Positions 1 to 23,236 of a stretch of DNA of 62,225 bases are shown in pieces (within the stretch, counting starts at the first letter, position 1; every line of letters starts with the position of its first letter). A program made the translations under genes and the position numbers. Under the pieces are notes generated by a model that saw only the letters and a list, made by a program, of their open reading frames with translations, was not told the origin of the DNA and searched no databases. The DNA comes from Macrostomum lignano (lineage: Eukaryota), in assembly GCA_002269645.1 (NCBI GenBank), contig NIVC01004060.1, positions 1 to 62,225 on the forward strand, given 5' to 3'.

Positions 1-2476
1 GTTTTACGGAAAGCCTCGAACACATCCGCCAGAAGCAGCACGTCCAAAGACAGGTATGCTGTTGTGTAGTCCCGCAGGCTGCGGCAACCGAATTCTTGCC
101 AGCTTTTTTCGGCCCGGGCGTAGTCCTCGAGCGAGCAGGGCTCCTCCCTGCAGTGTGGTCAAAAACGCCTCTCTGGTGGGAGACGCGTAAACTGAATCTA
201 TTTTCTCAAAAGAATCCGCAAATGAAGTACGGATAGACTCCTTTTTGGCAAACAGAGTCGTTTCGCTCGGACGGATAGAACTTTAGAAGCTCCCTTGTAC
301 AGATGAGTTGATCTGGTTGAAGGCGCCTGCCAGGCTCGCCAGGCTTGACGGTAAATAGGCAAATGAGTCTTTGAATACAAATTTCAAACCACGTCTCGTC
401 AAATCCCATCCGTGCTGGTGCTGCCTCACTGCAGTCGAAACTTAATGGAAAATGTTTTAAGCCGCTCACGGTTTTTCCGGCAAGACATTCAACGAATGTC
501 CTTGCTGGTGCCTGAGAAAGTCTCGTAGATCTCTCGAATGATAATTTCGAATCGAATTTTCAGGTTGTGCATAAAAAACTGTTATTTTTCGGCGTTGTAA
601 ACTTAGTTTTGATTGCAAGAGCAACATAAAAACAGCACGAGGACGGCCTGTCAAATGGCAGTGATCCAAAAACAGCTTGATCTTCTTCTTCTCCGGGTCC
701 GAACTCCCGCAGACACAACTGGCAATTTGTCGCTGCCTGCAGCACTAGTTTTCGTGCGGGAAGAAACTTTCTCATCAGTGGTTTGTGGAGTTCTAGCCGT
801 CCATAGTGCATGATTTCCGAAGCTAGTTGGCGTAATTTTAGAAGAAACTGGCTCCGCAAATTGAGCCCGGCCGAGCTCTGAGACTAGAATACAGCACCTC
901 ACACGGCTTTCCAGCGCAATAGGAAGGCAGCTTGCTTTGAAGTCTTGCGGCTGGGTAACCAATCTGTAGCCCAGGCAGAGTGGTACGAGTACTTCGCACA
1001 ATACCGCTGCCAAGTTTGGGAACCGGGTGACCGTGCAGCCGCCTGTTCCGGACTCATTGCAATCGTTTCTAGATCTGAATAAATAACAAATAAAGCAGGT
1101 AGTCGAGTCTCATCGACTGTGAAGCGCACAAAAGCCTCCTCTTTAGCTGCATTTCTTCACGCGGAACAAAGCGGATCTCGCGAAAGCTGACCTTCCGGTT
1201 CAGACTGCCATACACAGCCCCTTGGTTGAGCTGCAGGCTCGGTTGAGGCACGGACGTGCCAGTACAGCAGTGCTCGTTCAAGATGAAGTCCCAGGACACA
1301 GTGTGATTAAATGGCGCTAAACAGTCGGGACAGAAACGCCGTCGCCGCGTGTTAGAACTTAGCAGGCTTTGCAAATTCTTGATAGGCACATAGTGCCCAA
1401 ACTTGAAGCTTGAATAAGGTGGTATGAACAGGCAATTTGCCGTGTAGATAGCTTCTGGTGTTTTTTTCGAAAAAAACAAGCTAGCAGATTTGCTTTCGTG
1501 ATCCCAGACAAACATGCGTAAGCCAAGAGTGGGATTTTTTCTCAGAAACTTTTTGTAGCTGTGTGCATTGTGCCGTTTAGGACCGGATGGATTTCGACCG
1601 AAATCGAAAACTTGCAACCATCGCTTGTAGCTGGCTCGTCTAGCCGGTCGGGCCACATCTTTTTGAAAGACGCTTGCTACTACAGCATAGCAAAAACAAT
1701 CCTGCTGGTTCGCATTGTTGGTTTTAGAAGTAGCACAGATCCAGCTTTTTTCGCCAGTGACAGCGGAATTTTGAAAGGTGTGGCCGCCGCCGCCGCGCCG
1801 CCGCCGCGCCGCCGCGCGTTGCTCCAGCTCCTGCCCGCGCTGTACAGACGCTCTCGCACGAGAGCGTCTGTACAGGGCGAGTAAAAAATCAACTGTTCCA
1901 CCGCCTCGAGATGCCAATTGCTGCCTTGTTTTTGAAATTTTCCAGTCGAGTGACAAGATCGCCAACAGCGCGCAAAAACCACTGGTTAAAGGCGTCGGGC
2001 GAAAGAAGAGCTCCAGCAGCAGCAGCAGACTCTTCGTCAATTGTTATCGTGAAGATATTGGTATTGAAATAAACTGAAATCTCCTGTTGTTGCAGCGTTG
2101 GCTGGTCGGCATCACTAGCAGCAGCAGCTGCTGGCATCAGACGACTTAGCTTACACTTTAAATGAATGCAAGTTCGCATTAGTAGATCTGGCTGCAGTAA
2201 CATACTGAAAAGTCTGTAGATCGGCTGTTGAAGTGAAGCGAGCACCTCAGAGATCCCGTTGTTGTTGTCGTTGCCAGTGCCGTCAGCAGTGGGAATAAAT
2301 TTTAGAAAATTAGCTCTTCCATGCAGCGCTGATTCTTCCAGAACCGCATTCCAGCCACTAGGCGGATTGCTAATCAACGATTCCAGAGGGTGAAAACAAG
2401 CACCGTGCGAATGCGCATGCAGTGCTGCCTGGGTTCCGAATCATTTGCCGCAAACGCGGCACTGAATCCGTGGCAT
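1..2476 (-). pseudogene. Protein-primed family B DNA polymerase (Polinton/Maverick/adintovirus type) with N-terminal C2H2 finger and endonuclease VII insert; frameshifted, and continues beyond the left edge
   Basis: ATG at 2476 gives MPRIQCRVCGK*FGTQAALHAHSH (C2H2 finger with in-frame TGA at 2441-2443). Pieces in ORFs 1889-2377, 1069-2040, 899-1129, 560-859, 466-669 and 206-469 carry NNANQQDCFCYAVVAS, GHYVPIKNLQSLL..FCPDCL..F....EHC, IYSDLET, CQLCLREF..DHCHLTG (Endo VII) and KGVYPY. Nt 59-1 translate to AYLSLDVLLLADVFEAFRK. There are multiple frameshifts. Confidence 0.85.
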
Positions 2477-2689
2477 TTGCCGCCGACGAGCTGTGATTTA
2501 AGTATTACATGAGTTAATTAGGAGCAGGAAACTTTCTTTCTACTAATACAAGTAGTAAAAAATTAACTTGAACGCCGATTTGGTTTCATTATTTGACAAT
2601 AATGAAATGATGGTTGCAAATTTTTTTTTTCTTTCAGAGTAGTCGACTCAGTATGCACAAATTAAATATTCAAGAATTAAGCTTTGATT

Positions 2690-3425
2690 TCACATCACTG
2701 CCTCGATAAAACCGCCACTAGGAGGCGGTTGACGCGAGCCTTGCACCAGGTCGCGCACCAGCCGGCTCAGATCTTCGACTGTTGATGATTCTGTAACCCT
2801 CAGTTGAACCACAAACCCGTAGCTTGGGAATGTGGCTTGCTGCGCCGCAGCCAGCCCTTGAAGATAGGCCAGGTCGATGTTGGCTTCTTCAGGCCGATTT
2901 CGTTGGCGAATGCGCTGCAGTGCCAGCTCCGGGTCGATTTCAGGGTACACCAGAGACCAGAGTGCAATCCTCTCGAGATGTAACCGTCTTTGTCTTCTTT
3001 TCTAAGACCTGCAGCTGATTAACGAGAATTGCTTGCTGGGTACCATTCAAACGCCCTTGATGTTTTAGATGCGTTAAAAATGCATAGCAGCTGCCCAGGT
3101 GTCGGTCTGCCACAATAAACCGATGCGTGCCTTTTGCAGCGATTTTGCGGAGCTTCATGTCGCGTCTCACCATCTCGTGCGACACATGGACTTGAAATTC
3201 AAAAGCGGACAAGTCACCATCGTAAAACTGCTGCAGCAGATTCTGCTCCGTGTAACGGTGCTTTCGGTAGTATTCCACCGGCTCCCGAGCAAACTCGTAC
3301 CCTCCTTTCCAACATTCCAGCCGAGCCATCAGAGCCAGATTGCGGACAAGGGAAGATTTTCCCGCCCCAATTAGACCTTCGGTCACGTAAGTTCGAGTCT
3401 GAGCACGGAGTTGGGCGGCAATTTG
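2690..3425 (-). pseudogene. Deoxynucleoside (thymidine) kinase, dNK family; one frameshift near 2950-3000
   Basis: P-loop TEGLIGAGKS, EPVEYY, DRHLGSCYAF, then in the next frame PELALQRIRQRNRPEEANIDLAYL (lid motif). The frame is open from a ttcatttcag acceptor at 3426 and has no ATG before the P-loop. Confidence 0.88.
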
Positions 3426-3438
3426 CTGAAATGAATAA

Positions 3439-4003
3439 TTAGACGGCTGCTTGGGGCAAATGTTGGAAAACCTTCAACACTTGCTTCAGTTCCTCGAGAT
3501 TTTGAGGACCACAGACTATAAATTTCCGACTAAAGAACAGGTTCAGGAACAGCCTCGGGTTGCACTGAAGCCTGCAGGAGATTGCTATAGGGAAATTTTC
3601 CTTATCCATGCTTAAACGATAGCCGCTCTCCAACTTCAGTGTAGTGGTATCCGAAAAGAGGGACTCCAGGAGGGGAGTGCGGACAGATGAATCTAGGCCT
3701 TCTGCATAAGTACTTGTCTGCACACACACAGACTCATAGTCTAATCCACCGCTGCATAGCTCGTTTATGAAGCACAGGCACCTTACTGCTTGAATTTTAG
3801 AATTGGAACCAAAAATTTTTACTTTCCCGGCCATTGGGATATAGCTTAACAGAACAAACACAAAAGCGGGTTTTAAGCATCGAAGGGCGCCCACGATAGA
3901 GTTTTGACTCCCGCTAGGCAGAAATTAGCTTAGACTTTAACAGATCCAGCTGCCCGCCTGGTGGAGTGACTAATCGAGCCCCCACTACATGTTGCAGCCG
4001 TCT
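3439..4003 (-). pseudogene. TATA-binding-protein-like (two TBP repeats), with an in-frame TAG at 3914-3916 and a frameshift at ~3830
   Basis: Repeat 1 reconstructs as RRLQHVVGA..GGQLDLLKSKL..LYRGRPSMLKTR..SVKLYPNG/KVKIFG (cf. TBP LQNIVST..LDL..IFASGKMVVTG). Repeat 2 is CVQTST..SMDKENFPIAISCRL..PRLFLNLFFSRKFIVCGPQNLEEL (cf. YEPELFPGLIYRM..PKIVLLIFVSGKIVLTGAKQREEI). Confidence 0.75.
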
Positions 4004-4098
4004 CTGGAAGAGACAAGGAACAAGAAAAACACATTTCTTGATTTCTGTAAAACAATGAGATGTTACACGTTTATTTGACTTGCATTTGAACTTCAACT

Positions 4099-4225
4099 CA
4101 AGGACTACTTAACAACACAGGACGTTACACTTGCAAATATTGGCAGAATTCTAACATGCCGCTTTGAATGTATGTGTCTTTGGATATTTGCAAGTGTAAC
4201 GTCCTGTGTTGTTAAGTAGTCCTTG
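4099..4225. mobile_element. 127-bp MITE with perfect 42-bp TIRs and an 8-bp TSD (P-element-like termini CAAGG)
   Basis: 4099-4140 is the exact reverse complement of 4184-4225. CTTCAACT flanks both sides (4091-4098 and 4226-4233). Confidence 0.9.
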
Positions 4226-4406
4226 CTTCAACTTTTGGTTAAAAAATAGCGCGGGTTAACTAGTTTTCAGACTAGCTAGCTTTCTGACTAACTAGCCAGG
4301 CAAAAATCAATGGTCAAGCATTTAGATAGGACCATAACAATAGTTCATTTTTGTTTTTCTTGGTTTTGAAGAAGTCACTAAAGCGCCCGATCTAAGCTGA
4401 TGCTTT

Positions 4407-6395
4407 TCAGGTAAAAGCGTCAAAGGGCGGTGACAAATCGCGGTCCTCCACTAGGTCATCAGTTTCCTCCTCCGAGCCGTCAGCAGAAGCTGAAAGCGGG
4501 CTCTGCGGGGCTCGCATTCTTGGCTTTGTGGGCGCTTTTCGCCCAGACGGACGACTCACGAGCTGCTCTATCGGCGGCTTGCAGACCTCCATGAGGTCCT
4601 GCGCAATCGCTTCAACGATACGTATTTGAGTCCGAGCTGTCAGCAGCAGAGGTGGCCTTCCGCTTGCGAATCCGCGGCAACTTCTTCGGCGGCGGCATGG
4701 TCCTGTCATCCGGATATCATCAGTCTGCTTGCTGACCGTCTTTGTCAGCGGCTGTTGGTGGTTGTGGTGTTCTTGAGTCAGCGTCCGGGTGAGTTGAGGT
4801 AGAAATATCTCAACCGGGAGTTGATCAGGTGATGGTTTCAACTTGGAGGCGTGCGTGACCATTGGTGGAGCATTCAGCTTGTTGATGTCCTGTATTAGAG
4901 CGTTCTGCGGTGATACCCGCTTGAGGAGACGGAACGGTCCTCGATAAGGGTTAGAAAACTTTGAGGCTTTTTGTCCGGAGATCTCTAGGTAGCAGCGAGA
5001 ACCAGGTTGTAGTCGGTAAGTCGTTGGTGGAGTCTCCTCATTATGTCGTCGGGCTCGCTCCTCTGCAGTAGCGTGGAGGTAATGGAGGGCGACATCTTGA
5101 GCCAGAGTAATGCTGGAGCAAATGGTTTCCAATGGTTGTATGTTGTCGGAGTAAACAGAGATCTGGTGATCAAGGATTCGCGTGCTCGGAGCTTGGAAAT
5201 CGCGAGCAAAGAATAGGTAAAATGGTGATTCGCGCATCACAGTGTGGGCGCAGTGTTGAGGGCGAGCGTCACTGCCGGTAGGTGCTCTGTCCATTTGTCT
5301 GGCTGGTCGTGCACGAACGTGGTGAGTGCCTGCTTCAGTGTTCGGTGCGCTCTTTCGACGAAGTTGCTTGACGGCTGATAGTAGGAGGTATAGATTAGTT
5401 TAATTCCGAGGGCTGCCATATAGTCTGAATTCCGTAGAGATGAACTGTGGTCCGTTGTCTAGGATGATGTTAGCAGGTATGCCAGCGAGTGCGAAGACAT
5501 GGCGAAATAGGTGTTCACACACCGTTGACGATGTTGTGTCAGCTAGTGGGATTGTGAAGAGAAATTTGCTAACTCCGCATTGTGCCGTCAAGATGTACTT
5601 GTAGACGTCTCGCTGATGGTGTGCAGATGGTAGTGGACCGACCAGGTCGATGGTTAGGTGTGAGAAGACGTTAGCGAACTTAACTGCTCTGAGTTCAGGG
5701 TGGACTTTTCGACCAGGTTTCGCTCGATGGCAGATTTCACATTTCTTGACGTAGTCCATGGTGTCATTGTAACAGTTCGGCCAGTAGTAGTATCGAGAGA
5801 GCCGGTACCAGGTTTTTTCAAAACCGAGGTGGCCGCCAAACGGTGAACTGTGACTCTCATTTAGTAGGGCCTGCTGATATTCGGTTGGGATTACTAGTCG
5901 CAGGTTGGAATTGCCCTTTGCTGACTCATAGTAGAGTGTTTCGTTCGCGTAATGGTAATTGTCAATGTGATTCCGTACTCTCAGCTGTCCGCCTGCACAT
6001 TGCACGTGAAGTGAGTGTGGTGCGATCTTGGCGTTCAGTTTCTGTGCAAAAGCCGGTGAGATGCAACTAATTGAGGCGCCGCTGTCGATGAGAGCCGTGC
6101 ATTTGTGTCTTGTCGCTGGAGGCATAGTGCACCATAGTGCTATCAACGTGCGCGTGGTGAGATGTTTTAGGACGGTGTTGCATGCGATCGGCCATGGAGG
6201 AACCGGTGGTTTAGGCGCTGGTAGTGGTTTCCTCGTTGTCGTAGAAGGTGTTGGTGTTGGTTCGGTCTGCTGTGCTGTCGAGGTTATTTCGATTGGCGGT
6301 GCTGACGGGGCGGCCGGCGGAGCCCGTCGTGGCGGTGATGAGTTTAATAGTACCATTGGTATTTGGTTTGGAGCCGATCGGATGCAATGATGCAT
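4407..6395 (-). pseudogene. Ty3/Gypsy-type partial aspartic protease fused to integrase (H2C2, DDE core, GPF motif); no RT/RNase H; two frameshifts
   Basis: LIDSGASISCIS (protease active site); HSSPFGGHLG...CEICHRAK (zinc finger); TIDLVG, ILDNGPQF and VERAHRTLK (D,D,E); YRGPFRLLK (GPY/F). Spread over ORFs 5400-6395, 5237-5419 and 4407-5294. Confidence 0.92.
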
Positions 6396-9300
6396 GGCGC
6401 CGTCTATTCCTTGGGCTATCTGTTGTTCGGAGGACCATCAGACGGTGCGTACGTCCGTATCGTACCGTGGTCGCGACGCAGAAACGACCAATATTGCAGA
6501 TGAAGATTAGTAGCGCGGCATATACAATGACCGCGGAGCTGAACAGAAAACGTTCCATGTGGTTGTCGCGGAATCGTTCCCAATTAAAGATGGTGGTGCT
6601 CCAGAGATTCTTAAATGCTTGTGTAGCGTCCAGTCTGAAGCTTGAGGCGTCCGCCAGCAGTTCTTGGCGGGTTTTGTTATTGTTCAGCTTAAAGACAGTA
6701 ACTAGGAAGTCTCTTGTTTGCATGAATTTTTCCATCATGTCTGTTACGGTGACCGGACTTCGCAGAGTGCTGTAGTTGACATCGCCAATGGGTGTGAAAA
6801 TGCTCCGTCTCAGGTCGCTATAAAGTGATTGTAGAAGGTACGTTTCGTCGGTGACCTGATGTGAGTCTAGTTCGCGAATGTCGCTGAAATTGGTCGTTGC
6901 TTTGAAGATAGAGGTATCTTTCGGTAGATAGTATCCATCTTGATATTCGCACGGTATTAGTGGTGGTTTGGCGGTTGAGACGATGAGCGTGGTGGTATCC
7001 AGATAAGCTAGTACGCTCCTGTTTTGTAGTTGAAATTTCATAGGTGGTCGCGTATAACATCTATTGGACTTGTACTCCGGTTGGACGAATGTGAAGTCGT
7101 AAAGTGGTTTGCACTGATGTACGAAAAAGTGACCAGCAATCGACTGAGCGTATAAGAAGCGGTCGTTGAAGAGTTGTCGTGCAGCCAGTGTCGGATTGGT
7201 GTAGTACAGTGTGCGACTGTATCTCAGGTTGAGGGCGTACATTTTGCATTGTGTCTTAGTAAGTTGCGTGTGTACTGTCTTGAGGTCTTGGTGTAATTTC
7301 ATCTCGAGGGCTTGTAGGCGGCTGGAAAGTAATTCTGCTGAGGCCAAGTTTGTAGATAGTTGAGGTGCTGATTGGTTGTCGGCTGGCGTTTCACTTGAGC
7401 GTCGAATACGTACTTTGTCTAACGTCGGCGCTGCGTCTCGTTGTAAATATGGTATTGCCAGTGGATCATATTGATATTCTTCGGTTTGTGGTGTTGTGGC
7501 GTCCGTTGGCGGATCGATTGACATTGTGTGGGTTCTTCGGCTTGTCAATGGAGTTAGAGCAGTTTCCGTTAATCTTGGAGGTTCTGATGTCGTCACTGTC
7601 GATGTTTGCGGTTGCGTCGTGGTTGTGGAGGCCACCAATTGTGTCGTTGGTGTAGGACTGTCCGTGATTGGTTTCGTCGTGGTCGTCTCTTGCGTTGTTG
7701 GATCAGTTTTCGTCGTCGTTTGGTGCGTAGTCGTTCGGGTCATGTCAGTCGTCGATTTTACGACTGTCGTTGTAGGACTTGTTGTAGGGTTGGTTGATGT
7801 CTTCAGCGCATCTGTTGTTGTTCGTGTGGTCGGCGTCTATTTCAGCGTGGTTGTGCTGGTGGCTGTCGTGGTGGTACTCGTCCTTAGATTTGTTAATGTT
7901 GTCGATGTCGTCGGTGTCGTTGATGTTGTCGGTGTCGTCGTCGTTGTCGATGTTGTCGATGTTGTCGGAGTTGGGGAAGTTGTCGGAGTTGGGGAAGTTG
8001 TCGGAGTTGGGGAAGTTGTCGGAGTTGGGGAAGTTGTCGAAGTTGTCGCAGTTGTCGAAGTTGTCGCAGTTGTCGAAGTTGTCGCAGTTGTCGAAGTTGT
8101 CGCAGTTGTCGAAGTTGTCGCAGTTGTCGAAGTTGTCGCAGTTGTCGAAGTTGTCGCAGTTGTCGAAGTTGTCGCAGTTGTCGAAGTTGTCGCAGTTGTC
8201 GAAGTTGTCGCAGTTGTCGAAGTTGTCGCAGTTGTCGAAGTTGTCGCAGTTGTCGAAGTTGTCGCAGTTGTCGAAGTTGCCATGGCGATTTGTTTGTAGG
8301 GTAGTGAACGGCTAGGACGGGATTTCGTTTCTGCCGTATTGGGAGTGGCGTCCGATGACTGGTTTGTCTGAGCAGTCGGAGTTGGAGGTGTTGGCCTTAT
8401 CGCATTAAGGAAGTGTTGTTCTTGTTCAAGTACTTCGACGTAGAGTCCTTGCTCGGAAAGGTAAAGCTTTTTGGTGCCAGCGGAGCAGCTAAGAGTGTGC
8501 TGAGGCGGTGTAGCTGCAAATGTTAAAGCTAGCGTTTGGTCGTCGTTGATGAAAAAGTTGGAGTGCTGTAGTCCATTCAGAGCGCGGAACGGTATTAATG
8601 AACAATCTGATTGTGGTGGTACATTCCAGGACAACGTTAGTTTTCGCTCGCCTGCTGCGTGGAGAGTGGCGACGGCCGGTGGAGTTAGTTGTGTCCAGGC
8701 CTCTGTCAGAAGCTGATGTGGTAGATTAAAACGCATCATCTGTTCCACAGTTGTCGGGATGGTGCAGCCTTTTGTTGAATAGACACAATGTTTGATCGGA
8801 AACGCCAGTGATTCCATCGGATCTGTTGGACTAGCAAAAGCGGCGATGCTAGTAATCAAGGTGGATGCCGTTATCGTTTGAGTACGAGAGGCGAGGCAGT
8901 TGTCCAGCAAAGTTGTCTGTATGGCTGACCGGAATAGTTGTTGGCCAGAAACTGTGGCTACTATTTGTAGTTGGCCATCAGGTGAATTTCTGGACACGAC
9001 CCATTGTAGACAAGCGAGTGGCGTTGTCGGTTTCGGTTTCACAGTTATGTGAGCTTCACGAAAAGTGCGTAGGTGTGAGCCAAGACGATTGCAGTTGATA
9101 GTTATCTCTTCCCGATAACACATGTTCATCATTATCCGGGTCTTTGCTAGGTTAGAGGTGTAGAGCCGTAGACGCATTGGGATAGCTCTTGTTTCTTGCG
9201 GGTTGAAGGACTCGCACCGTATTTCGGTAGGGATCTTGAAAATTCGAACAGGGCCTTTGAGCGGGCAGACCATTGGTGTATCGACGAATGTTGGGTGATC

Positions 9301-10063
9301 GAGTGATGCCGTTCCGTTACGTGTTCCGATCAGAGTGGTGATCAGTAAACCAAGGAGTAATACGCCTAGTTGACCGTGAGTGTTTAGATGAGTCGTCTTG
9401 CGGGTCGGTTGTCTCAGAGAACGCTGAGTTGTGGGCGCGCAGTCCGGGCAGTTGGGAGTCCAAGGGACGACCTGGATGCCCATGACTTCGGCCTTGGTGC
9501 TCTGCTGTCGGCGCATAAGGGCACGCAGGAGGTTGTATTGCGGTCCAGTCCCGGTGAAGTAGTATGGTCCACTACTTACTGGAGTAGACACATTGACTTC
9601 CGGCTTTGATTCCATGGCCTTGTCGGCACCCGTCGGCTGCTGTTGTTCAGTGCTGGGGGGGGGGTGCGCTTGTCGTTACGACCTGTAGGGCGTTCAGCGA
9701 GGCTGCTGGGGCTCGCGGTGACGGCGATCGTGAGTGGCTTCCGTTTGATCTGTTTGGTCCATAGGAATTTCTGTTGGAGAAGCGGACCTGTCGTCTGTCT
9801 GAGTGTTGATTGGCATCCATGATGATTTCCGGTACAAACGGATGGGCTGGTGGTGAATAACCAGAGGGCCAAGCAGTTGGTGAAGTAGTTACGTCGGGAG
9901 TAGAGCCGGAAAGTCGTCGGGTACTCGAGGTTGTGTTGTCAAGTGCTTGGTCTGTGTCAGCGGCTGGCGCTGAGTTTCGTTGCAATTCGCGCGATTTAGC
10001 TGTAGGGGATTGTGATGCTGCTCGTCGACCAGAGCGTAAGAGCATGCAGGATCCTGCTATCAA
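6211..10063 (-). pseudogene. Envelope glycoprotein of herpes gB / chuvirus G (class III fusogen) type, with long N-terminal leader, internal signal sequence, mucin-like Thr repeat and C-terminal TM
   Basis: ORFs 9647-10063, 7837-9615 and 6211-7743 join through a G-homopolymer frameshift (~9656-9665) and one in-frame TAG (7837-7839). Motifs: hydrophobic LGVLLLGLLITTLIG; Cys-rich ectodomain; RPSR furin-like site; TNPTLAARQLF..AQSIAGHFFVHQC (cf. gB NP..I.SA..G..V.AR..GDV.AV..C); CYTRPPMKF...LIPC (cf. HSV gB CYSRPLVSF...IEPC); TM FSSAVIVYAALLIFI. Confidence 0.8.
7961..8280. repeat. Coding 18-bp tandem repeat (TTSPTP x~4, then TTATTS x~13 on the minus strand)
   Basis: Units gttgtcggagttggggaa and gttgtcgcagttgtcgaa, in frame within the glycoprotein ORF. 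Confidence 0.95.
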
Positions 10064-10964
10064 AAGAAGTGGTTCTGGGTTATAATAAGAGTATGAGAGA
10101 TAATTTAATTAAGCAATATTTTGAGAATACACTGAGCATTATACCAGGGTACCATCTGGGTCGTGTTTATCTGGACTATCCCTTTGGTCATTATTTTGTA
10201 ATATCGGTATGACATGTAATGAGAATTCTGACATGTATGCACACGAGTGACTACTGCTTAAGTAGTATCAGACGATAATCAAACAGAATATATGTGTATC
10301 AGCGTATTGATCAAAATTGTAGGCTGTGGAGCCTGTAGACTTTTTTGTAAACGAATACGAGCATCTATTGCAAAATAGGCTATACGACAGGGCCACAGAC
10401 TACAGTGTGGGCTTGTTAGGAAACGGTACGGCGGATGCCACAGGTGCGTTTGTGGGCTTATTGCGCGAGTTCGGTGCACGAACTGTAATGTGTGATGAGT
10501 TGCCGGCCAGGAATGAATGTCGCGGCAGGGCGACCGTCGCAGCTTGTGTGACCTTTTAACCGGAATCGCCGATTTGCGATCTCCGACCAGCTCTTCGGGC
10601 ACAGCTTGTGTGGCCGGGTTAACAACTGAGTGCCACTACCGAACTAGTGGCCGCCACGACTGGGTGGCTTAACGTGGGCCCACGTTTTTACTCTCTATGC
10701 TACTAGTAGCCCTCTGTGTCAAGCGTCGTTGAGAAAGAGAGAAGAAAAAAGGGACAGAACGAAGAAAAGGCGGTCTATATATTTTGTGTTTTTTGTTTGT
10801 CAATTTTCTGTAAGACCGCTAATAAGAGAGTGAGATGTAGTTCGTTGTACTTATATTTAGAAATTTATTTGGAGTAGAGCATTGAAGGTGAAGTAGTATG
10901 TCATTGTCAGATAAATAGCATAGCGATATACGAGCTAGTGGTGTTAGTTAAGGGACGTTCGTAT

Positions 10965-11630
10965 TCAGAAGTGTTTAAGGACGTCAATGCGAGACTGGTA
11001 TGAGCCGACGAGCAGGCGGCGGTAGGCGGGTGGAAGTTGTTTCACTTGGTTGCGGAGGTGTTCGTGGAGGGGGAAACCCCTAGTAACCCTCCACGTATGG
11101 TGGAAGGCCATTTGGGCGAGGTGGGCAAGGCTGGGTGGGGAGAAGGGCGGCTTGGCGAGTGAGCCGATGTCGGCGGCGACGCAGGAGCGGCGAGCTTCGT
11201 TGTCCGTAGCCAGGTGTTCTGGGCGTGTGCCCGCAACCACCAACTCCAAGTGGAGGAGGAGGGGTGCGAGCTCCTGGTACTCCAAGACGACCTTCCAGAC
11301 AGGGGTGCGTAGACGCGGCAACCTCGTCAGGAAGCGGGCCACCAGGTAGAGTGCCGTTGGCTTGTCATTCGAGCCTTTCAGGATGTAGATTATCGTATTC
11401 TGAATGGCGCGCTCAGATCTTCGGATGGTGTTTGCCGGGAGTAGGGCATACCATGACATCAGGCCATCTAAGACCCGTAGGTCGCCCTTGTTCAACCGCG
11501 CCAGTTCCTCCTCGTCGTCCCATTCGAACACGGTGTCTCCACAGGCCAAGTCGATGAGTCGGGCAACGGCTGGGTAATCGTAGCAAAGATGGTAATAGGG
11601 GAAGGGTGGTTGAAGATAGGGCTGGACAAA
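10965..11630 (-). CDS. Orphan protein with a C-terminal SOCS-box-like motif
   Basis: PPSLAHLAQMAF (BC-box-like) followed by QLPPAYRRLL (cullin-box-like). The frame is open from a ttttag acceptor at 11631 with no initiating ATG. A diverged paralog at 23014-23236 supports coding status. Confidence 0.55.
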   Translation of the reverse strand, partial: FVQPYLQPPFPYYHLCYDYPAVARLIDLACGDTVFEWDDEEELARLNKGDLRVLDGLMSWYALLPANTIRRSERAIQNTIIYILKGSNDKPTALYLVARFLTRLPRLRTPVWKVVLEYQELAPLLLHLELVVAGTRPEHLATDNEARRSCVAADIGSLAKPPFSPPSLAHLAQMAFHHTWRVTRGFPLHEHLRNQVKQLPPAYRRLLVGSYQSRIDVLKHF

Positions 11631-13814
11631 CTAAAATCGTGAGGATCAACCTCCGGGATTAAGCGAAAGGTGCAGAGGGGATTGGAATTGGGCCTAACGA
11701 AAGGTGGTGGAGATGGTCAGGTAGGTTGGAGATAGGTAGCCATAGGGGTTCACGGTCTCGAAGCTGGGAACAAAAAGCGGCATAACTCGTCGGGGAATAC
11801 ATGTCGGTGGACGGCTCTAGAGAGTGGAAAATTAGGATATGAAACTAGTGGATGGCTGGTGTAGTAAGACTAGGAGCTTTGGAAGGGGAGCAATGAGGGG
11901 GGGACGGAAGATCGGTCTTTATTACGAGGCGCTGTGGGGGATGGGGAACCGCAGACATCCTGACTGAAGAGGCTAAGAAGTGGAATTTGTGATGATTCAA
12001 CAGACGCTAGACACTGGGCAGAACCGGCAGTTGACTGCCACGGAGAGACCCCCAGCATAAACAAAGAATGGGGAGGAGGTAGGAGAGTGCCAGCATTTGG
12101 AGGCGAAATCCATCCTACTTCCCAAGGTCCATCGATGAGGGGGATGCCTGCCGGGTGGTAGCATGTTAGCTGGGTTTACTGGCGTGTGACTGGCGGCGGC
12201 GTTACGTCAATCGAATAGTTACAGGCGCGGAGCCTCTGTGTGCTGGAGCGGATCCAGGCTTATTGCGTGGGGGCTAGATCATCCCTGAAAGCAGAACAAT
12301 ACAAAGCATGGGGTCTGACCCATTGGGACGAATCCAGGTTGACTGACAAAGGGCTGTGTTGGCCGTTTAAACAATAGATAATACCGTTAGTAGAACGTGC
12401 CTGCGTAAGATGCTGAGTGGAGTGGCGCAACGAATTCGGCAATTGGGCTGGAGGCATATGTTCTTGCAGGTAGGAAGTGGGGTGCTTGTCGGTGTCTACA
12501 GGATAGAGGGAACGAAAGTAATCGATTGGGTGCCTAATTAGGAAGAGGGGGAGGCACCCTAGAATTGGATGGGCAGATAGGCTGAAAGGGGAGCGCGGGT
12601 AACAAAGCGCGGGGGGGGCCAAGTGGGAAGCTCGATGCACGAATATCGAGCGATGTCTGAGGGGGCAGAGAGGCTGGGAAGGAATGTCCCGTGCCGATCT
12701 GTGTACTTCAGCGAAAGCCAAAAGTCAGTATTCGACGAAGACAGACCAGACTGTACTGTTAAAGTAGACTTCTGGGGAAGGATGGATCGAAAGGGGATAG
12801 TCCAAAGGGTGAGAGCGGCCGTGGGACGAGAAAGGGCTGCACTGTCCAGGCATTCCAGAACTTCTAAATGTCAGCCGTAGCCCCCAAAAGGACGAGGTGG
12901 CTGATGCACTATCCAGCAACAAGTCTACAGCAAATGTCAGAGGAGTGCCTTTCGCCCAAGCGCAAATGTCAAGCCTGCAATTCAGTGCAATTCCTCCGTC
13001 CCGGGGAAAGTTCTAAGGAAGCTGTTAAGATGGCGCATGAGTCTACACAGGCATCGTAATACAAAGGTGTTTGTGACATGAAGCAACGATACAAAGAAAG
13101 AAGAAAATGTTTTTGTTTTTCATTTTTTGAATAGAGTGGTGCGCACATTTTTGTGGTTTTGTAAATATTTCAATGTTTTAATTTTAAAATTTTTTAATTT
13201 TTTATGTGATGACCTCAGGGATATCCTACACGCCCATAGCTAAGCTCAGTTGCTGTTTACCCCAACATGCAGTGGGGTGCCATGTTGGGAGCAGAACACG
13301 GCAGGAAAAAACGGTCAGGGAACCAATGTAATACTTTTAATTGTTGTTTCAGCTCTCTTTCGGATCTGCGTCCGAGTATTCTAAGATTAAACAATGAGCG
13401 GCAAGTCCGACTGTGTTTTCCTGCGGTGTTAAACCTTCTCTTGAGATGGTATATTTCCAATCTAAATCACTGATGGAGTTCACGTAAATACAAAGGATGT
13501 AAGCTTCTTAAGTACGAAGTATGAAGCAGTCAGAAACGGAAAATATCGATACTTATCAGTACTCTCGGCTGATCTGGTGTTCGAGGCTATGCCTGTATTG
13601 CTTGTCGATCGGGTGTGAACTGTAGATTTGATTGGTTTGGTTTCTATCAATGTCTTTAATTATTTTGCCAATGAGTCGGAAGTAGAGGAAATGGATAAAG
13701 GGTCTGTGAGCTGGCTAGAGTGTAAGAAGTACAAGGGGAGTTCCAAGAGAGGTCTAAGGACTGCTTCGTACTTTCGTGCATTGAAATACAGCGCGATGTT
13801 AGGCTGCTATTGGC

Positions 13815-14807
13815 TGATGTGTTCCTTATTACCAGTCTTTTGATAATCAAGGAACCACCACTTCTAGCTATTTAGCTAGGCAACCCAGTTATCAACAAGG
13901 TATTACTTACCTCGACTTTCCTCAGAGATATCTCTTCTTAATTCGCGCGGTAGATTCTCGTTGATCTCGTCTGTAGATCCTTCGGCGATCTCGTAGATCA
14001 GGTTCTGTGTGTCTCCTGTTTCGGGCCCTTTGCTTCTTTTTTACTTCCGATGAAGTAACTTCCGGTCGGTAATGTAGTCAGGGCCAATCAGATTCTTCTT
14101 GTCGACAATGGGATCCCTGCGCCAAATATAGCGGTTTCTCTTAAGCCTTCTTCTTCTAGTGGTGCTTCTCTGCACTCTACTAGGTATGCTCCGGATATCG
14201 CTAGTAGGTCCTCTGCGATCTACTAGGGTAGTCCTTCGGGAGACTACGACCACAGGAGTCTCAACAGACTCAAAAGTCTCAATAGACTTAATTAAACTCA
14301 AGTCTCAACAGACAAGAGCGAGCCGGCTCTAACAACAATAGGCGCAATTAAGAAAGGCTTACCGCAACTATCAGACCAAGTCTTAGTTGACTGGTTAACT
14401 AGTATGTCGTTCTATCGACACACTCTTCGGAGCGCTCCTCTTCCGTGGGGAGAATGACTCCGGTGCCGCTCTGGGCCACTTATATTTATAGGCATTTTGT
14501 CCATGAGTCACGTGTTGCGCTGTAAGGTGAAATAAGATTGATTGTGGTTAAATATAGTAACATGACTCATGCTGTTACTATAAATAGTAACATGAATCAT
14601 TCTGATGCTATAAATAGTAACATGAATCACTATGTCGCCATATGTTGCAACATGATTCATCCGCTATAAATAGCCACATGATTCATATGCTATAAATAGC
14701 AACTTACATCATTTTCTATCTTAAGTGCGCATGCATGCACTTGCTTACTTACAGTAGTATCTATGATTTTTACTTTTTACTTTTATCGGGAGGTAGAACA
14801 CTCTACA
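13815..14807 (-). mobile_element. Solo LTR copy A (subfamily 1), 993 bp
   Basis: TGATGTGTTCC...AGAACACTCTACA termini; flanks TGGC/TGTC (4-bp TSD, 1 mismatch). The paralogous empty site is at ~23675-23700. TATA box (CCTATAAATA) on the minus strand. Confidence 0.85.
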
Positions 14808-14924
14808 TGTCCTGCGTTTAGCGAACCAGCAGATGAAAGTGCATAGATGGAGTTTTGTGCTAAAACGCATGCGGTGGAAATGGCTACATTTCAAAAGTTA
14901 GTTACGTATTACAAATAACTTAAA

Positions 14925-16289
14925 TTACCTGATGCATTCGAATGTGGTTTCACAGAACGTTTTTGTCGCGAATGTGACACTCATGCCATCTCGGCGCCAC
15001 AGCTCCGAGCCGCTGTATGGACTGTGTCCTTCATCTGATGTGTTCCTTATTACCCGACTTCGATAATCAAAGAACAATCACTTCTAGCTCTTTAGCTAGG
15101 CAACCCAGTAATTCAAACGAAGGTATTCAATTACCTTGACTTCTTATGAGATATCTCTCCTTGTTTGAGTCCTTTGTAGATCTCGTGTAGATCTCGATCT
15201 GTAGCTCAGGCCTGAATTCGACTCGACTTGTAGTCCTGGTCCGAGTTTCTTTTTCTTCTTTTGCCGGCCGGTATCTGTCGTTCGGACCAATAAGAAGCTT
15301 CCAAATTAACAATGGGTACCCTGCGCCAAACTGCGGTTTAATATAAGCCTACTCCTTCTAGCAGTGCCTCTATGCCTCTATGCACTCTAGGTATAGCTCC
15401 GGAAACCACTGATAGTCTTCTAAGATCTATCAGGGGCAGTCCTTCTGGAGACTGCAACCAGTAGAGTCTAAACAGACTCAGGAGTCTCAACAGACTCAAA
15501 CTAAACTCCAACGAGACGTCTCAAAACACAGGCGCAAATGAGTAAGGCTTACCGCAAGAACTCGACGAGTCTTCTGTAGGAAGTCCTGTAGTGGCTTCCT
15601 CTTCGGAGCTCTTCTCCTTCCGGAGGAATTGTTGGCTCTGAGTCCGTTCCGGACCACTTGTATTTATAGGCGTTCAGACCTCTCTCGAGGTCGTTAATCA
15701 CTGTCTTCGCAAATGTCAAAGGGTCACGATTCGGTGGCTGTCAAGCATGACAAGGTAGAAAGTTGCGCAACTAGTCTACTGTAAAAGCGCATGATTGGTT
15801 ACCGTAGCTGGTAGACTTTGATTGGTTCATCCGGGTGCAACCCGAGTGCAAACCAAATGATGACTTGAAGGTGGGGTTTGAATTGACAGTTGTTGGTCGC
15901 ACGTGATTGGGTGATTTCTAAAATTAGCATGCTCGAGATTTCTCTCTTTCTATTGGTTAATTCGAATATATGTATGGTTCAGCGCATATCCTTATACATG
16001 CTCCTCAAATTACTACTATTTAAGTAGTACGTTAACAATTTTCAATAACTTTTCTGGGAGATATAATACTCTACACATCTCGGGTGATGCCGCGAAAGAC
16101 CTCTACCGGCTTTGTGGTCTGAAAAACGAGCGGAAGCAGCTCCCGGCATGTAGAACTGGGTCTCCAGGCCAGAGTTCGCAGTCCGTTTTCGTGTTTGTTC
16201 CACTTTTCTGCCCTGCCGAAGATAATTGCGGCATCCTTGCGTTCGAGGGCCTCCTTCGAGACAATCGCAGCTTCAGGGAAGAACGCCAT
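14925..16289 (-). pseudogene. 106-aa orphan ORF split by solo LTR B
   Basis: Removing 15036-16075 plus one CATC copy joins MAFFPEAA...FRGITRD to EGHSPYSGSELW...TFECIR* in frame (214+107 = 321 nt). Confidence 0.6.
15036..16075 (-). mobile_element. Solo LTR copy B (subfamily 2), 1040 bp
   Basis: TGATGTGTTCC...ATACTCTACA termini; perfect 4-bp TSD CATC. Confidence 0.88.
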
Positions 16290-16946
16290 CTCGGTCAGCC
16301 AGGTTGCTGTTCGTGGCGGCTGTGGGACTAGTGCCTTATATAAGCCTCAGCAAATGGCATGTAGCTGTAGCCCGGATGAAAAAACAACATTCCGCATGCT
16401 TTTACCAAAATGTCAAAAGGACAACCCGCGCCCAGATTTTTTCAAATTTTGCATGCCAGTAGCAAGACGATAATTTTTTCATTTTAATGGCGAATGACAG
16501 TTGGTCTTCTAAATCCTGTAAATAGCAATGGTCTACTAATGGAAAGGGGGATGATAAATGCAGTCAAGACTGAAACAGTTGGTGCCAAGGCTGAAAATGC
16601 CACTAGGGGAACTGTGTCAGCTGTTGTATATACAAAAGTTAGTGGGATTAAAACGAAGAAGGCAGTTGAGACAAGAGATAAAGAAGATGGGGGTGATCGC
16701 TCATTCCTACAGAATCAATCAACCGCACGCTCCGTTCGATATCGGTTGGGTTGCTGGCCGTGATGAGCCACTCTGTTGTGAAGAATGAAGACGGTAAATA
16801 TAGCCAATCCTAAACAAAGAACTTCACTTTCGATATAAGCTTAGACGGCAAGGGAGCTGTATCCGAGAGGATCCACTCTAAAAAAGCGCAATCTCTATTG
16901 TATAGCAGTATCAATATAGCTTAACTTCTTAAATTTTGTTTGAGTT

Positions 16947-17533
16947 ATGAGCGAGAATCTAAATCATTTCGGACGCGCTGCTGAAGCTGTTAACGACCCT
17001 AGACGGGGCCGTTCGCGTTCGCGAAATGGACACCATATAGATACTTTATATTTTAATAGTTCGTCACAATTTCCGGAGTTTGACGAGTTTCCGGATGCCG
17101 ACTACTTAAATGAACTATGCCGGATCCCTGAAGAGGGTAAGTTTGGTACCTGCTTGGTTATGTTTTAATTTATCCTCATTGAAATAAACATCTAGTGTTG
17201 CGACTTTCCTCCGCAGATGCCATCAGTCCTGAACCGCAGGGTGATCATGGACGCTGGGCACCGTGGACGTGGGTGTCGAGTGCGTGGACGTGGGCGAGGG
17301 CCCTGTGGAATAATATATATGGCGCTGCGGGCGGAGACAGCGATGTTGAATCTAGCCTTCAAAGTGATTCTGGCGAGGATATTCTGGCGAGGATGTTCGA
17401 CCGACCGCTGCGATGCTCGAGTCTTCCGTCCTGGGCGAGGGCCGTGGGCGGCGGAAGCGCTGTGCAGTCCGACTTGGTGAGCGAGCCTTCTAGACCAAGC
17501 GAGAGCGTCGCGGGGGGGCGGCAGCCATCGTGA
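16947..17533 (+). CDS. Two-exon orphan gene antisense to gag (exons 16947-17136 and 17217-17533)
   Basis: Donor G|gtaagt at 17137 and acceptor ttcctccgcag at 17216 give an 80-nt phase-1 intron that joins ORF 16947 to ORF 17195-17533 in frame. AATAAA at ~17945. Confidence 0.55.
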
Positions 17534-17600
17534 GATTGGCTCCGTCGAGGCTCGTGTTTGTCGACAGTCACGGGATGGACCTAGCCGGAGCGAAGGCGCT

Positions 17601-17849
17601 ATGAGCGGCGACAATCCTCGCTGGTACTCATTTCTTAACCATCGTCACGCATCTCACGTCTACGCCCGACATCGCCCTCTTGATGGGCGCGGGCATGGAC
17701 GGGTGCGTAGTAACGGCGAGAATTGGGTAATCATCGCCGAAGAGCCTTCGCTTTATGGTCCATTGCGCATACTGGTTAGAGAGAATAGGCCTGGTCCGCC
17801 TATTCGACGGGCGACTTCTGACTCGTACTCGGGCCTCTGTGAATTTTAA
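17601..17849 (+). CDS. Orphan 82-aa ORF, possibly a frameshifted continuation of the spliced gene
   Basis: ATG-initiated ORF with GC-balanced coding-like composition, followed by an AT-rich 3' region. No recognisable motif. Confidence 0.3.
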   Translation: MSGDNPRWYSFLNHRHASHVYARHRPLDGRGHGRVRSNGENWVIIAEEPSLYGPLRILVRENRPGPPIRRATSDSYSGLCEF

Positions 17850-18934
17850 GCATTGTGTTTACGCGCCCGCCTAATAACTAATAACGTTACAGCCGTTACA
17901 GAGAATGCAAGCCCGTTGCATTGAGCATGTGCGAATGTATGTGAAAATAAATATTAATCGCTTTCAGTGTTACTTCAATGCGATTATAATACCGTGTTCT
18001 TAATTTGTGCAATACTTAAGTTTCTATCCAATGCTTAATACGTATTGTGGCACGGCAAACTTAGAACAGTGTTTAGATCTTACACTAGAACTAATACGGC
18101 GAGCTTAAACCTAGATGTAGTAATTTTCTCTACGAGCCTTTGAGTGAATAACAGAGTCTAAAGACCAAGACAGTTTAACGATTAAGATTAACGAGATTTC
18201 ATTTCATACATGGAGTTAGTTGAGAATGAAAAATTATACGTTTAATGAAGCAAAAACATGAGATTAGGAGATATAGAACACCAAACAAAAACACTCAAAT
18301 TTAGTCTTAGCACCAACGCGTAAATATTATAAAACTAAAAAATAATAATGGGAAAGTTAGCATCGATGGCGATAAAGTGTTAAAAATGAAGAATGGGCAA
18401 ATGACATAGCATCAAGCACACGGAAATTACATTTAAGCATTAAGCTACAATTTAAAGTAAAGTAAAGTAAAGCAGTATGAAGAGTTACAGAAGATAGGCG
18501 GCGTCTGCTGATCGCAGATACAAAAATATAAATAAAAATTTAAAAAAAATTGCACCGTGTGTTAGTACCGTTACATCAATGCCAATAGTTCAATAAATTG
18601 TGGTTCCTATCACACCAGAGCCTGGGCAGTGAGGCCTTGCATCCGCTGCGATGGAACGCTATCTAATTCTATTGACTCTCCAGTTTGATTTGGCGACTCT
18701 CGTCCCTCATTGATACTCTGCAGGGGAATCGCGTGCCATTCGCGTTGAGGGGTCGATCCGTGGGGATAGTGCAGACCTGTCTCTTGGGTTGGTTGTCCAC
18801 TTGCTGAGATTGAAGGCGACTGCGGTGGCGTTCTTGATCGAGCCGCGCGCGATGCGCTGATGTTAAAAAAAGGATGAAACAATGAAACAAAACTGGAGAA
18901 CATGAGTTGAAATATTCACATAGGCAATTTAAAC

Positions 18935-19189
18935 CTACCAAAACTTGTAGCAGCGAACAACCCACGATACTAGCGAATAGATGAACACAACAACAACTAG
19001 GGCTGTTAGCAGTCCGACTGGTTTTTCAGTGCCACTGAATGATGCGGACTGCAACTGGTGCTTTGAAGTGCGACTCAGCGGCTGTGTAGAGCCATTGAAT
19101 TTTGACTGGAGTGCCACAATAGCTCGAGTGAGTGCGCGCATCTGCTTAACCTGGTTCCTTAATGCAATGATAATCTGTTGTTGAATCAT
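18935..19189 (-). CDS. Small orphan membrane protein (84 aa)
   Basis: ATG start, N-terminal amphipathic/coiled segment and C-terminal hydrophobic stretch LLTALVVVVFIYSLVSWVV. Confidence 0.35.
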   Translation of the reverse strand: MIQQQIIIALRNQVKQMRALTRAIVALQSKFNGSTQPLSRTSKHQLQSASFSGTEKPVGLLTALVVVVFIYSLVSWVVRCYKFW

Positions 19190-19254
19190 TGTCTTGCTTT
19201 AAATGCGATTTTAGCGAAATACTCCTGTCCTACACGGCTACACTCCTAAACTTC

Positions 19255-19644
19255 TTAACACAGTGATTTAAGCGATTTTAGAGAGCGAAAGAGGTCTTTC
19301 TTATGAGATCGATAACAGGGGACGAAGAATAACAGCGGGTGTACGCTGGCGCAGGCGAGAGGCAGACTGTTGAATAATGTACATTTGTGCTGGGGGCGGG
19401 GGTGATAGGAAAAGTCGTTAAACCCACTGACTGTGAGAGGATGGGCTAGTGGATGAGAACGAGCCTCTAGCCTAAGAAGACGAAACGGACTAGCTGCAGT
19501 TAAGACAAGACGCTTAGAAGGATGGAATGATGCGAAAACTTGTAATTTTTGAACAAACTGGTATAGGGCGGGTGTGAGAGGCGAGCCTGGAAAAAGAAAG
19601 GAATCCAGATTTAAGACAAACCATACTAAGCTTATTTTTTCCAT
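19255..19644 (-). CDS. Orphan ORF, 129 aa
   Basis: ATG-initiated ORF co-oriented with gag; no recognisable domain. Confidence 0.25.
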   Translation of the reverse strand: MEKISLVWFVLNLDSFLFPGSPLTPALYQFVQKLQVFASFHPSKRLVLTAASPFRLLRLEARSHPLAHPLTVSGFNDFSYHPRPQHKCTLFNSLPLACASVHPLLFFVPCYRSHKKDLFRSLKSLKSLC

Positions 19645-20249
19645 CTGCGGACCAGTGCTAGTGCAACACGGTCTGAATTGAGAGGTGTTTGGTATTGGGA
19701 CTTCGGCGTGGAGGCAAACATAACTGATGCAGGGTGTCAGTGACTATTCCTAATAGCACATTGTTTCTGAATTTGCGCATGAACATTGAAAAGACTTCTC
19801 GAAACCAAAAGTTCTGTTGTGCTATAAGAACAAAAAAGAATCAGTTGAAGCGGACTTTCCCAGCACCCGAACACTCGCGCATTTAGCTAAAGCGTCGAAC
19901 CACATCACTATAGCAAAGCAAAAGTTAGGAATCTAGGAGAGAGTGGCCGCGAGCCTAGCAATAAAGTGGTGGGGAAAAGTGGTGGGACGAGATTAGGCAA
20001 ACGCGCCTGGGTAGGATAGAAATTCATCGTCTAGTGGCTGAGACTTCCTATTGGTTTTGCTATGCAAAAACAGGCTATGCGTGTATCCCATTGAAATAGT
20101 GCTTGGAACTTCATATTACTTTCGCCATGGAAAAACGAGCTATGGGCGTAAAAAACGCTTACTACTGGTCTCTTCCATTTTGATCATGCCGATTCCATTT
20201 GCTTTTTCTTTGTCGTCCTTGTTGTCCTCGTTTGTCTTCTTCCTCTCGA

Positions 20250-21287
20250 TCATGATGATACCAAGTTCCGGGTCCGTAAAGTCAATCTCCATGTCGTCGA
20301 TTGTGAAGACGTGCTGTTCATGTTGCTCATTTTCCCTAGTGTACGTGATGGCATTTGCGTATCGTTGCATTGCTTGTGTCGGCTGTTTTGGTGGTACTTG
20401 GCGTTGCGTGGCCTGTAGCCATCATTTCCGAAGCGCATCGTGCCTTGTTGTTGCCGATTTTGATATTGCTTCCATGGCTTTTGAGGTTTCCGACTGTTGA
20501 ATGGTGGCCTTGGCTTGTCATATCTGGTCGAACGATGAGGACAATTAATTTGATAATGGTCTTCTTGTCCGCAGTAGTAGCATCTGACTTGGGCGCGTTC
20601 ATTTCTTATTTTCTGTTCGGCGATGGCGGCTATTTGATGTTGCATTAGCTTGTTTAATTGTTGCGTCAACTTCTGCACTTCTGTGTTGCTTGCTGTCGTT
20701 AATGGGGCACTGGCTTCCCATTGCATCCCGCACCGCAAAAGGTCTTCCTCGGTTTCGATGTTCTCGCGCAAAAGTCTATCCCGAAGTGACGGCTGTGCAT
20801 TGTTTATTACGTGCAGGATGAGGTTTTGTTCTCGATCCATCTATCGTTGTCATTCTCTAGCGGCTAGTTCCGCTGCACCTAGGGGTGGTTGGTCCGCAGC
20901 TTGCAGCGTTGGCTGATGCAGTGCCTTAATTATTTGGCGGATATCATCCACAAAGGCGAGGAAGGATTCTGTTGCCTGCATCCTTCTGTTATGTAACTTG
21001 TGCAACAGCACTGATCTGTTTGTGCCACAGCGATTGAAGTGCGCGCGCAGTTGAATGAATAATCCTGGATAATTTTGCTGTGTTGCCGCATCCAGGTTGC
21101 CGTAAATTTCTCGTGCAGTACCTTGGAGAAGAGGTGGTAGCAGCTGTGCCTTCTCTGGATTTTGCAGATTGTATTCCCTGCATACCAGGTCAAAATGGTC
21201 GACAAAGGTGTTAAAATCTTTCTCCCTCGAGAAGGTACCCACTGTTTCTTTGATTTCCATATACACCGTTGGGTTGCGCCGCGCCAT
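20250..21287 (-). pseudogene. Gypsy-type Gag (copy 1) with CCHC zinc knuckle; two in-frame stops
   Basis: FSREKDFNTFVDHFDLVC..KAQLLPPLLQGTAREIY..L..HF (retrotransposon Gag capsid signature); VRCYYCGQEDHYQINC knuckle. ORFs 20850-21287 and 20250-20840 are in the same frame, separated by TGA-CAA-CGA-TAG. Confidence 0.8.
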
Positions 21288-21952: not shown

Positions 21953-21970
21953 AAGGGCGAGTTCACCAAT
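21953..21970 (-). promoter_or_regulatory. Primer-binding-site-like sequence
   Basis: The minus strand reads ...CATCA|AT TGGTGAACTCGCCC, i.e. TGG 2 nt after the LTR end and upstream of gag. The cognate tRNA was not identified. Confidence 0.6.
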
Positions 21971-23013: not shown

Positions 23014-23236
23014 GGCGCGCTCAGACCTCTGGGTGGTGTACATTGGAAGCAGGGCGTACCATGACAACAGTGCGTCTAGAACTCAGTAGGTCACCCTTGT
23101 CGAGTCGCGCCAATTCGTCGTCATCGTCATAGTCGAAAACAGGATCACCACAAGCCAAGTGGACAAATTGGGCAACGGCTTGGTAGTAGTCGTGGCGGAG
23201 ATAGTAGAATGGGAATGGGAAATTAAAGATAGGGTT
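23014..23236 (-). pseudogene. Truncated paralog of the SOCS-box ORF N-terminus
   Basis: HLACGDPVFDYDDDDELARLDKGDL/VLDALLSWYALLP..RSERA versus DLACGDTVFEWDDEEELARLNKGDLRVLDGLMSWYALLP..RSERA. It is cut by LTR C exactly after ERA. Confidence 0.8.

Follow-up and report, generated by a model that had tools for sequence, protein, structure and literature searches.

The contig NIVC01004060.1 of the flatworm Macrostomum lignano (assembly GCA_002269645.1), analysed here over its full 62,225 nucleotides (the window), carries a decayed Maverick/Polinton that is interrupted by an unrelated env-bearing retroelement. The left part of the Maverick occupies positions 1-4704, 14893-15034, 16076-17991 and 19383-20166. 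A preliminary description of this DNA had proposed that several genes lack an ATG of their own, open exactly at phase-0 splice acceptors and belong to one polycistron resolved by splicing. The replication-side genes (SSB-like, that is, single-stranded-DNA-binding-protein-like; TBP-like; dNK; PolB) are indeed co-oriented, as listed below in the order of the minus strand; a slash marks a splice cut.

19984..20166, no strand assigned: left terminal inverted repeat of about 184 bp, matching both ends of the C1680 copy, inverted
16335..16342, minus strand: TATA-like box, a putative early promoter about 50 nt ahead of the SSB-like gene
14929..16289, minus strand: SSB-like exon 1, about 105 codons, own ATG at 16289, split by a solo-long-terminal-repeat (LTR)-like insert at 15035-16075
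14893..14928, minus strand: what the retroelement insertion has left of the 5' part of intron 1 (phase 2; 91 nt long in sibling L021)
4407..4704, minus strand: remnant of SSB-like exon 2, namely its 3' end with linker, acidic tail and stop; window 4226-4704 is 85% identical to L021 1683-2126
4554..4560, minus strand: putative internal phase-0 donor L/GTGAGT, cut between 4560 and 4559; the window has E-Q-L here
4070..4075, minus strand: AATAAA, the likely poly(A) signal of a read-through SSB-like mRNA; a contig from run X2 terminates some 10 nt further on, a weak hint
3439..4003, minus strand: TBP-like exon with a phase-0 acceptor (AG at 4005-4004), disrupted in the window, where codon 30 is a stop and the frame is shifted
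2690..3425, minus strand: dNK gene (Pfam dNK), start codon lost and frame shifted in the window copy, acceptor-like site 3 nt before the start codon
1..2490, minus strand: 5' part of pPolB, acceptor-like site before 2490, own ATG at 2476 (M-P-R-I-Q-C), frameshifted and running off the contig; Pfam DNA_pol_B_2 on a sibling

The sibling on C1680 has terminal inverted repeats of about 184 bp some 18 kb apart, and carries genes for pPolB, dUTPase, ATPase and integrase together with capsid-like and protease-like open reading frames (ORFs), the core genes lying on one strand. Pfam identifies pPolB in sibling L020 (PF03175, E = 1.8e-25) and a retroviral-type integrase in a sibling (PF00665, E = 7e-9), whose position in the window copy falls beyond the contig end; the putative packaging ATPase of the sibling matches Pox_A32 below the cut-off (E = 0.002). 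The capsid and protease ORFs are present, and from their motifs we take them to be such, with no Pfam match. PolB, the integrase and the terminal repeats together identify the element as a Maverick.

A search of the genome with the TBP-like protein gave 80 matches, which were sorted by eye into six families (F1-F6). The window belongs to F1, locus L002 is its identical duplicate, and the other families are only 29-41% identical to F1 in the TBP-like exon. No related loci were found in the viral and metagenome contigs searched. On the minus strand of the window, acceptor-like sites stand before 4003, 3425, 2490 and 11630/11621, and 13 nt separate the TBP-like stop codon (3441-3439) from position 3425, both as originally described.

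The SSB-like and TBP-like exons

The expression data are assembled contigs of runs labelled as probable RNA, and such contigs cannot show that a junction is absent. The element uses the host spliceosome, since the joint of intron 1, with GT..AG ends, is found in contigs of three of the four probable RNA runs, drawn from three studies (L021 2595-2687). The same intron is predicted in frame in all six families, and the exons are joined there in UniRef models of F2, F3 and F4. In F1, F3, F4, F5 and F6, the families scanned, exon 1 is preceded by TATA-like hexamers at a distance of about 55-100 nt.

A phase-0 YAG/R opens the TBP-like exon in 21 of the 22 loci and in all six families; the sole miss, L042, is an indel-shifted extrapolation, and the site itself is present there. 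Acceptor hexamers of this kind occur in spacers at a background rate of 0.004 per nt. The exon lacks an upstream in-frame Met in all 16 F2-F6 loci, versus 3 of 6 loci in F1. In F2, the TAG of the acceptor is itself an in-frame stop codon and the first Met of the TBP-like frame is residue 44. The proposal that the TBP-like exon opens in phase 0 at an acceptor without its own ATG is thus borne out beyond chance (21 of 22 loci; F2-F6). Because the acceptor is kept and no upstream Met exists in F2-F6, the view that most families would need a start codon spliced in for the TBP-like protein is well supported.

It would be very improbable, in our judgement, that no start is spliced in at all and that the TBP-like protein and PolB use upstream in-frame ATGs, near-cognate codons or reinitiation, the acceptor-like sites being pyrimidine-rich spacers. 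Upstream ATGs do exist in F1 (TBP) and in F3 and F6 (PolB), but F2 TBP and F4 PolB have in-frame stops at the acceptor itself or two codons ahead of it, and the position and phase of the acceptor are fixed across families against the low background given above.

The model of a sibling TBP-like exon (pLDDT 84) matches TBP in a Foldseek search (E = 1.4e-8). Its two-repeat saddle has 44 PDB matches at E <= 0.001, all of them TBP among the matches listed, with TM scores of 0.56-0.71, and the modelled fold is complete and begins at residue 2 of the exon. Two unrelated metagenome relatives, available as protein only, have Q directly before the first R/K and unrelated sequence upstream. Protein searches for TBP-like forms found none, which is weak evidence, and a profile search of 1.84 billion representatives returned four close relatives of 143-257 aa, with no long fusion among those.

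A candidate partner for the exon lies within the SSB-like gene. A K-x-L/GTRAG phase-0 donor is found near the end of exon 2 in 19 of the 22 loci and in all six families, 270-619 nt upstream of the TBP acceptor; the misses are the window (E-Q-L), its sister copy L043 and the degraded L009. In the donor codons, Val is always GTR and Ser always AGY, versus 0.49 and 0.43 in the element ORFs, and in the TBP alignment used for comparison only 1 of 10 invariant four-fold columns is all-purine, at a divergence where largely saturated synonymous sites limit the argument from codons. Since all six families keep a phase-0 GTRAG donor upstream, inside the SSB-like gene, the TBP-like exon is probably cis-spliced onto that gene, which would give an SSB-TBP fusion.

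We propose that the short intron first joins SSB-like exons 1 and 2, as seen in contigs of the probable RNA runs. Most transcripts would then end at the poly(A) site and yield an SSB-like protein with an acidic tail, and a minority would use the internal L/GTRAG donor and splice in frame to the TBP-like exon, yielding an SSB-linker-TBP fusion. In one language-model search, the product of the SSB-like gene had Atlas scores of 0.92-0.95 to nucleocytovirus clusters, of which 10-17% of members carry DUF2738, DUF5871 or Pox_I3, families that presumably have an SSB role. The product ends in an acidic tail, Pfam gives no match and the fold search was uninformative; its SSB-like identity is a lead, not a result.

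Several points weigh against the cis-spliced fusion. In four of seven F1 copies, an in-frame ATG lies 12 codons before the TBP acceptor, and F1 could start TBP without splicing. K-x-L-V-S was perhaps kept for the protein, the tail behind it showing some conservation; GTRAG encodes 12 of the 49 V-S pairs (a count that includes the donors themselves), and the six families share ancestry. Three annotated models that represent families (P0147-P0149), and the other models retrieved alongside, are read-through forms. The SSB label comes from the single search above, and the exon-2 model is poor (pLDDT 49). Neither the SSB-TBP junction nor a leader junction was observed in contigs, and both partners rest on sequence conservation.

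It is unlikely, we think, that all downstream acceptors, that of the TBP-like exon included, are trans-splice sites for the host spliced leader in one operon, with the leader AUG starting both TBP (M-R-L-V...) and PolB and the internal donor being incidental or serving something else. A TBP fold complete from residue 2 agrees with such an operon, and so does the AATAAA that precedes the TBP acceptor by 72-76 nt in F1 and F3, which is near the roughly 100-bp spacing reported for M. lignano operons (PMC8629364); most acceptors also fit the host trans-splice motif [T/C]TNCAG given there. However, a donor kept in six of six families calls for a partner, and TBP offers the closest acceptor in frame. 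Trans-splicing, according to PMC8629364, requires an acceptor without an upstream cis donor, and no AATAAA was found between SSB and TBP in F4-F6 (the scan covered F1 and F3-F6). Given the conserved cis donor, the earlier idea that a leader AUG supplies the Met is a second choice for the TBP-like exon, and finds its best case in PolB of the sister families.

The other earlier suggestion, a shared adenovirus-like 5' exon, did not survive: no conserved ATG/GT mini-exon or donor in the 5' untranslated region was seen, and in F1, F3, F4, F5 and F6, the families scanned, the stretch from the TATA-like box to the ATG of exon 1 contains no GTRAG donor. On these grounds a shared non-coding viral leader was rejected.

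The dNK and polymerase starts

The dNK gene had been described as ATG-less. An in-frame ATG stands 3 nt after the AG in eight of the nine other F1 copies, the ninth being L002, the duplicate of the window. The loss is specific to these two, and an ATG-less dNK was rejected in favour of mutational decay. The Met is present also in F3, F4 and F5; F2 has no dNK, and F6 was unmatched by the P-loop pattern used. The distances from acceptor to ATG are 2, 3, 5 and 9 nt. In F5, TBP-like and dNK form one frame of 460 aa, within which an acceptor-like site and a Met are retained ahead of dNK (L070 from 3251 onward, oriented; L107, L108), which for this family contradicts the assumption that the two are separate ORFs. 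In-frame ATGs in paralogs undid the original claim for dNK and for the SOCS-like ORF discussed below, and left it standing for the TBP-like exon of F2-F6. Although F2 has no dNK, it has an acceptor followed by a 7-codon ORF that resembles the dNK start (L050 about 2230-2260).

For PolB, an acceptor-like site together with its own ATG at 2476 had been noted correctly in the window copy, and on account of that ATG the gene had been set aside. The F1 and F2 proteins start with M-P-R-x-Q-C. TTCCAG stands at phase 0 in the PolB frame of all 19 F3-F6 copies in which a zinc-finger start was found; of 16 further stretches, three were without a match and one belonged to F2. In F3, F4 and F6, this TTCCAG lies four codons before the PolB Cys, exactly where the Met ends in the ATG-bearing F1 and F2. 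PolB has no upstream Met in five of five F4 and seven of seven F5 copies, among them frames that run open for 1272 and 1482 aa. In the four F4/F5 copies checked, the first Met further down is 107-113 codons away. That PolB of F4 and F5 would need a spliced-in start is well supported by these frames.

The source of that start is less firmly placed. The genome gave 30 matches to host spliced leader genes ending in ATG/GTAAG and the control gave 0, in keeping with the expectation of a flatworm host whose leader ends in AUG; a related protein is also 100% identical to a UniRef entry from M. lignano. In Schistosoma, the leader AUG has been reported to start more than 40 cDNAs (PMC9851317, citing Cheng et al. 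2006). Because a partner adding an AUG alone fits all of the PolB data and the host leader ends in AUG, we propose the leader as the partner, and on balance favour the view that PolB of F4 and F5 takes its start codon from it. The read-through RNA would be cut behind dNK and trans-spliced at the PolB acceptor; with a phase-0 acceptor and no ATG, the terminal AUG of the leader would give M-P-x-x-x-C. The dNK gene, always with its own ATG, would probably be trans-spliced or reinitiated.

Two observations on PolB count against a leader-supplied start. An in-frame Met lies 19 or 40 codons before the PolB Cys in F3 (four of five copies) and F6 (two of two); this Met lies in non-homologous sequence and is out of frame in one F3 copy. 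In addition, the SSB donor, being phase 0, would also be compatible with the PolB acceptor in F3-F6. Such a fit could point to a purely cis, adenovirus-like arrangement, in which the SSB exons serve as a common coding leader that alternative splicing joins either to TBP or, in F3-F6, to PolB (an SSB-PolB fusion) and no trans-splicing takes place. Only cis splicing has been seen so far, and the adenovirus E2 unit encodes SSB, pTP and Pol with rare E2B mRNAs (PMC7851563). But the SSB donor cannot make PolB in F1/F2 or dNK in F4/F5, being out of frame or blocked by stops: the F1 PolB acceptor is out of frame with it, and this mismatch, with the varying distance from dNK acceptor to ATG, means that it cannot yield F1 PolB or dNK. 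A purely cis scheme also leaves unexplained why the acceptor lies exactly where the F1/F2 Met ends, and the conserved ATG/GT mini-exon is missing. We consider it decidedly unlikely.

In contigs of runs X1-X4 (one study) on the F1 copy L021 1-1800, no joint was found at the TBP, dNK or PolB acceptors; none of the seven loose ends resembled the leader, and contigs cross the acceptor sites unspliced. X1, which has cover in all 30 bins, possibly contains DNA or pre-mRNA, and the comparison had neither a trans-spliced host gene nor a DNA run as a control. X5, X6 and X7 give no cover at the three acceptors, and the junction blank, which concerns F1 only, decides nothing. A skip over 99-280 was rejected as an intron, as it resembles a deletion in paralogs L007/L010.

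Beyond PolB, the next ORF has an acceptor hexamer 22 nt (F1 dUTPase; L020 5601-5623, minus strand) or 8 nt (F3; L032 7573) before its ATG. Since these hexamers precede the ATG of the next ORF, the transcription unit may extend beyond PolB. The structural-module genes differ from the replication side: an acceptor hexamer was found at 1 of 17 of their starts, with about 10% expected. An ATAAG/TATAAG box is located 20-70 nt before many structural-gene ATGs (F1 and F2; L020, L023, L079).

Taken together, we lean towards the replication-side genes forming one host-transcribed unit resolved by splicing, in which the TBP-like exon would be cis-spliced onto the SSB-like gene and PolB would, in two families, receive its start from the host leader.

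The inserted retroelement and neighbouring sequence

The remaining features near the replication-side genes are the following.

4705..14892, minus strand: inserted retroelement nest (protease and integrase remnant, env-like gene, SOCS-like ORF, LTR-like pieces), missing from siblings L021 and L025 and not part of the Maverick
10965..11802, minus strand: SOCS-like ORF, own ATG at 11802, frameshifted twice in the window copy relative to L016 and L017
4099..4225, no strand assigned: hairpin insert confined to the window lineage, with perfect arms of 42 bp

The retroelement has Pfam matches to rve, Integrase_H2C2 and aspartyl protease; its env-like part has a weak match to Monjiviricetes_fusion below the cut-off (E = 0.002). 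The SOCS-like ORF had been counted among the ATG-less genes of the unit, with acceptors at 11630/11621. The frame has its own ATG at 11802, and in paralogs L016 and L017 the presumed acceptors lie within continuous coding sequence (D-F-S-L-S-S-P-I-F). The ORF sits in the inserted element that sibling Mavericks lack, and was rejected as part of the Maverick unit on this ground and on its frameshift decay. No match to the Pfam SOCS box was found for the ORF or for its last 71 aa, and the resemblance is by eye only. Along window 5400-11802, the retroelement runs from the SOCS-like ORF through an env-like gene with a long Thr/Ser repeat to a protease fused to an integrase, with no reverse transcriptase match. 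Window 13346-26791 holds a nest of related LTR-like repeats, at least five in number and 68-79% identical; another SOCS-like remnant lies at 23014-23266.

Two copies of the window lineage, on C2285 and C3805, carry window 16507-18241 and the terminal repeat a second time, in inverted orientation and a few kb past PolB (L031 5957-7860; L039 1814-3708). Clusters of small paralogous ORFs adjoin two F1 copies (L023 869-5612; L037 2000-7322) and share an NCEHFV motif, which we take to be LRAT/NlpC-like. Host-like genes with introns filled by tandem repeats lie at window 33320-36983, 43978-45323, 53619-55512 and 57352-58164 (coiled-coil, GPCR-like, EVE-like and bZIP-like; named by eye).

Relation to known systems

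The element resembles the Polintons/Mavericks and adintoviruses described in PMC8502044 in its pPolB, rve integrase and terminal inverted repeats, and in its putative A32-like ATPase and capsid-like and protease-like ORFs. In that paper, TBP is among the gene labels of a figure legend on non-animal elements, and the string "splic" never occurs in its accessible text; here, in contrast, spliceosomal introns and start-less exons organise the replication genes. Gene expression in Mavericks is little described: no splice map was found for any of them, and, judged by title and the opening of the abstract, none of the listed papers on Polintons and splicing, spliced leaders, TBP or Macrostomum describes such starts. 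The Polinton papers searched for "splic" had nothing on the subject. Tables of repeats or transcripts in supplements could already contain these junctions.

The likeness of the proposed unit to the adenovirus E2 unit lies in an abundant single-stranded-DNA-binding protein encoded first, a rare polymerase message last, and resolution by splicing (PMC7851563). It differs in that no shared viral leader or start-codon mini-exon was found in the Maverick. In adenoviruses, it is a small exon that provides the Met of Pol and pTP, and we know of no adenovirus with a TBP-like exon. Herpesviruses encode viral TBPs, such as KSHV ORF24 and EBV BcRF1. In both cases the TBP fold is virus-encoded and is a predicted domain within a larger protein, in elements whose late genes share a box; in the Maverick its partner would be an SSB-like domain added by alternative splicing.

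The AUG-ending leader, the phase-0 acceptor without its own start, the co-oriented genes and the short spacers all recall leader-AUG initiation in flatworms (Cheng et al. 2006, cited in PMC9851317) and the operons of M. lignano (PMC8629364). The recipients reported for leader-AUG initiation are host genes, whereas the recipient proposed here is a viral replicative polymerase. In practical terms, annotation from ATG to stop misses or truncates the TBP-like and PolB genes of these Mavericks.

More tentatively, some flatworm Mavericks may depend on the AUG of the host leader as the only start of their polymerase, which would lock them to hosts with AUG leaders, and alternative splicing may switch SSB to an SSB-TBP fusion that ties late-gene activation to replicating DNA. 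The Maverick TBP, if this fusion is true, would be a replication-coupled rather than a stand-alone factor. A leader-supplied start for a viral polymerase would, if true, make such elements dependent on their host in a new way and set a testable limit to their horizontal transfer between hosts.

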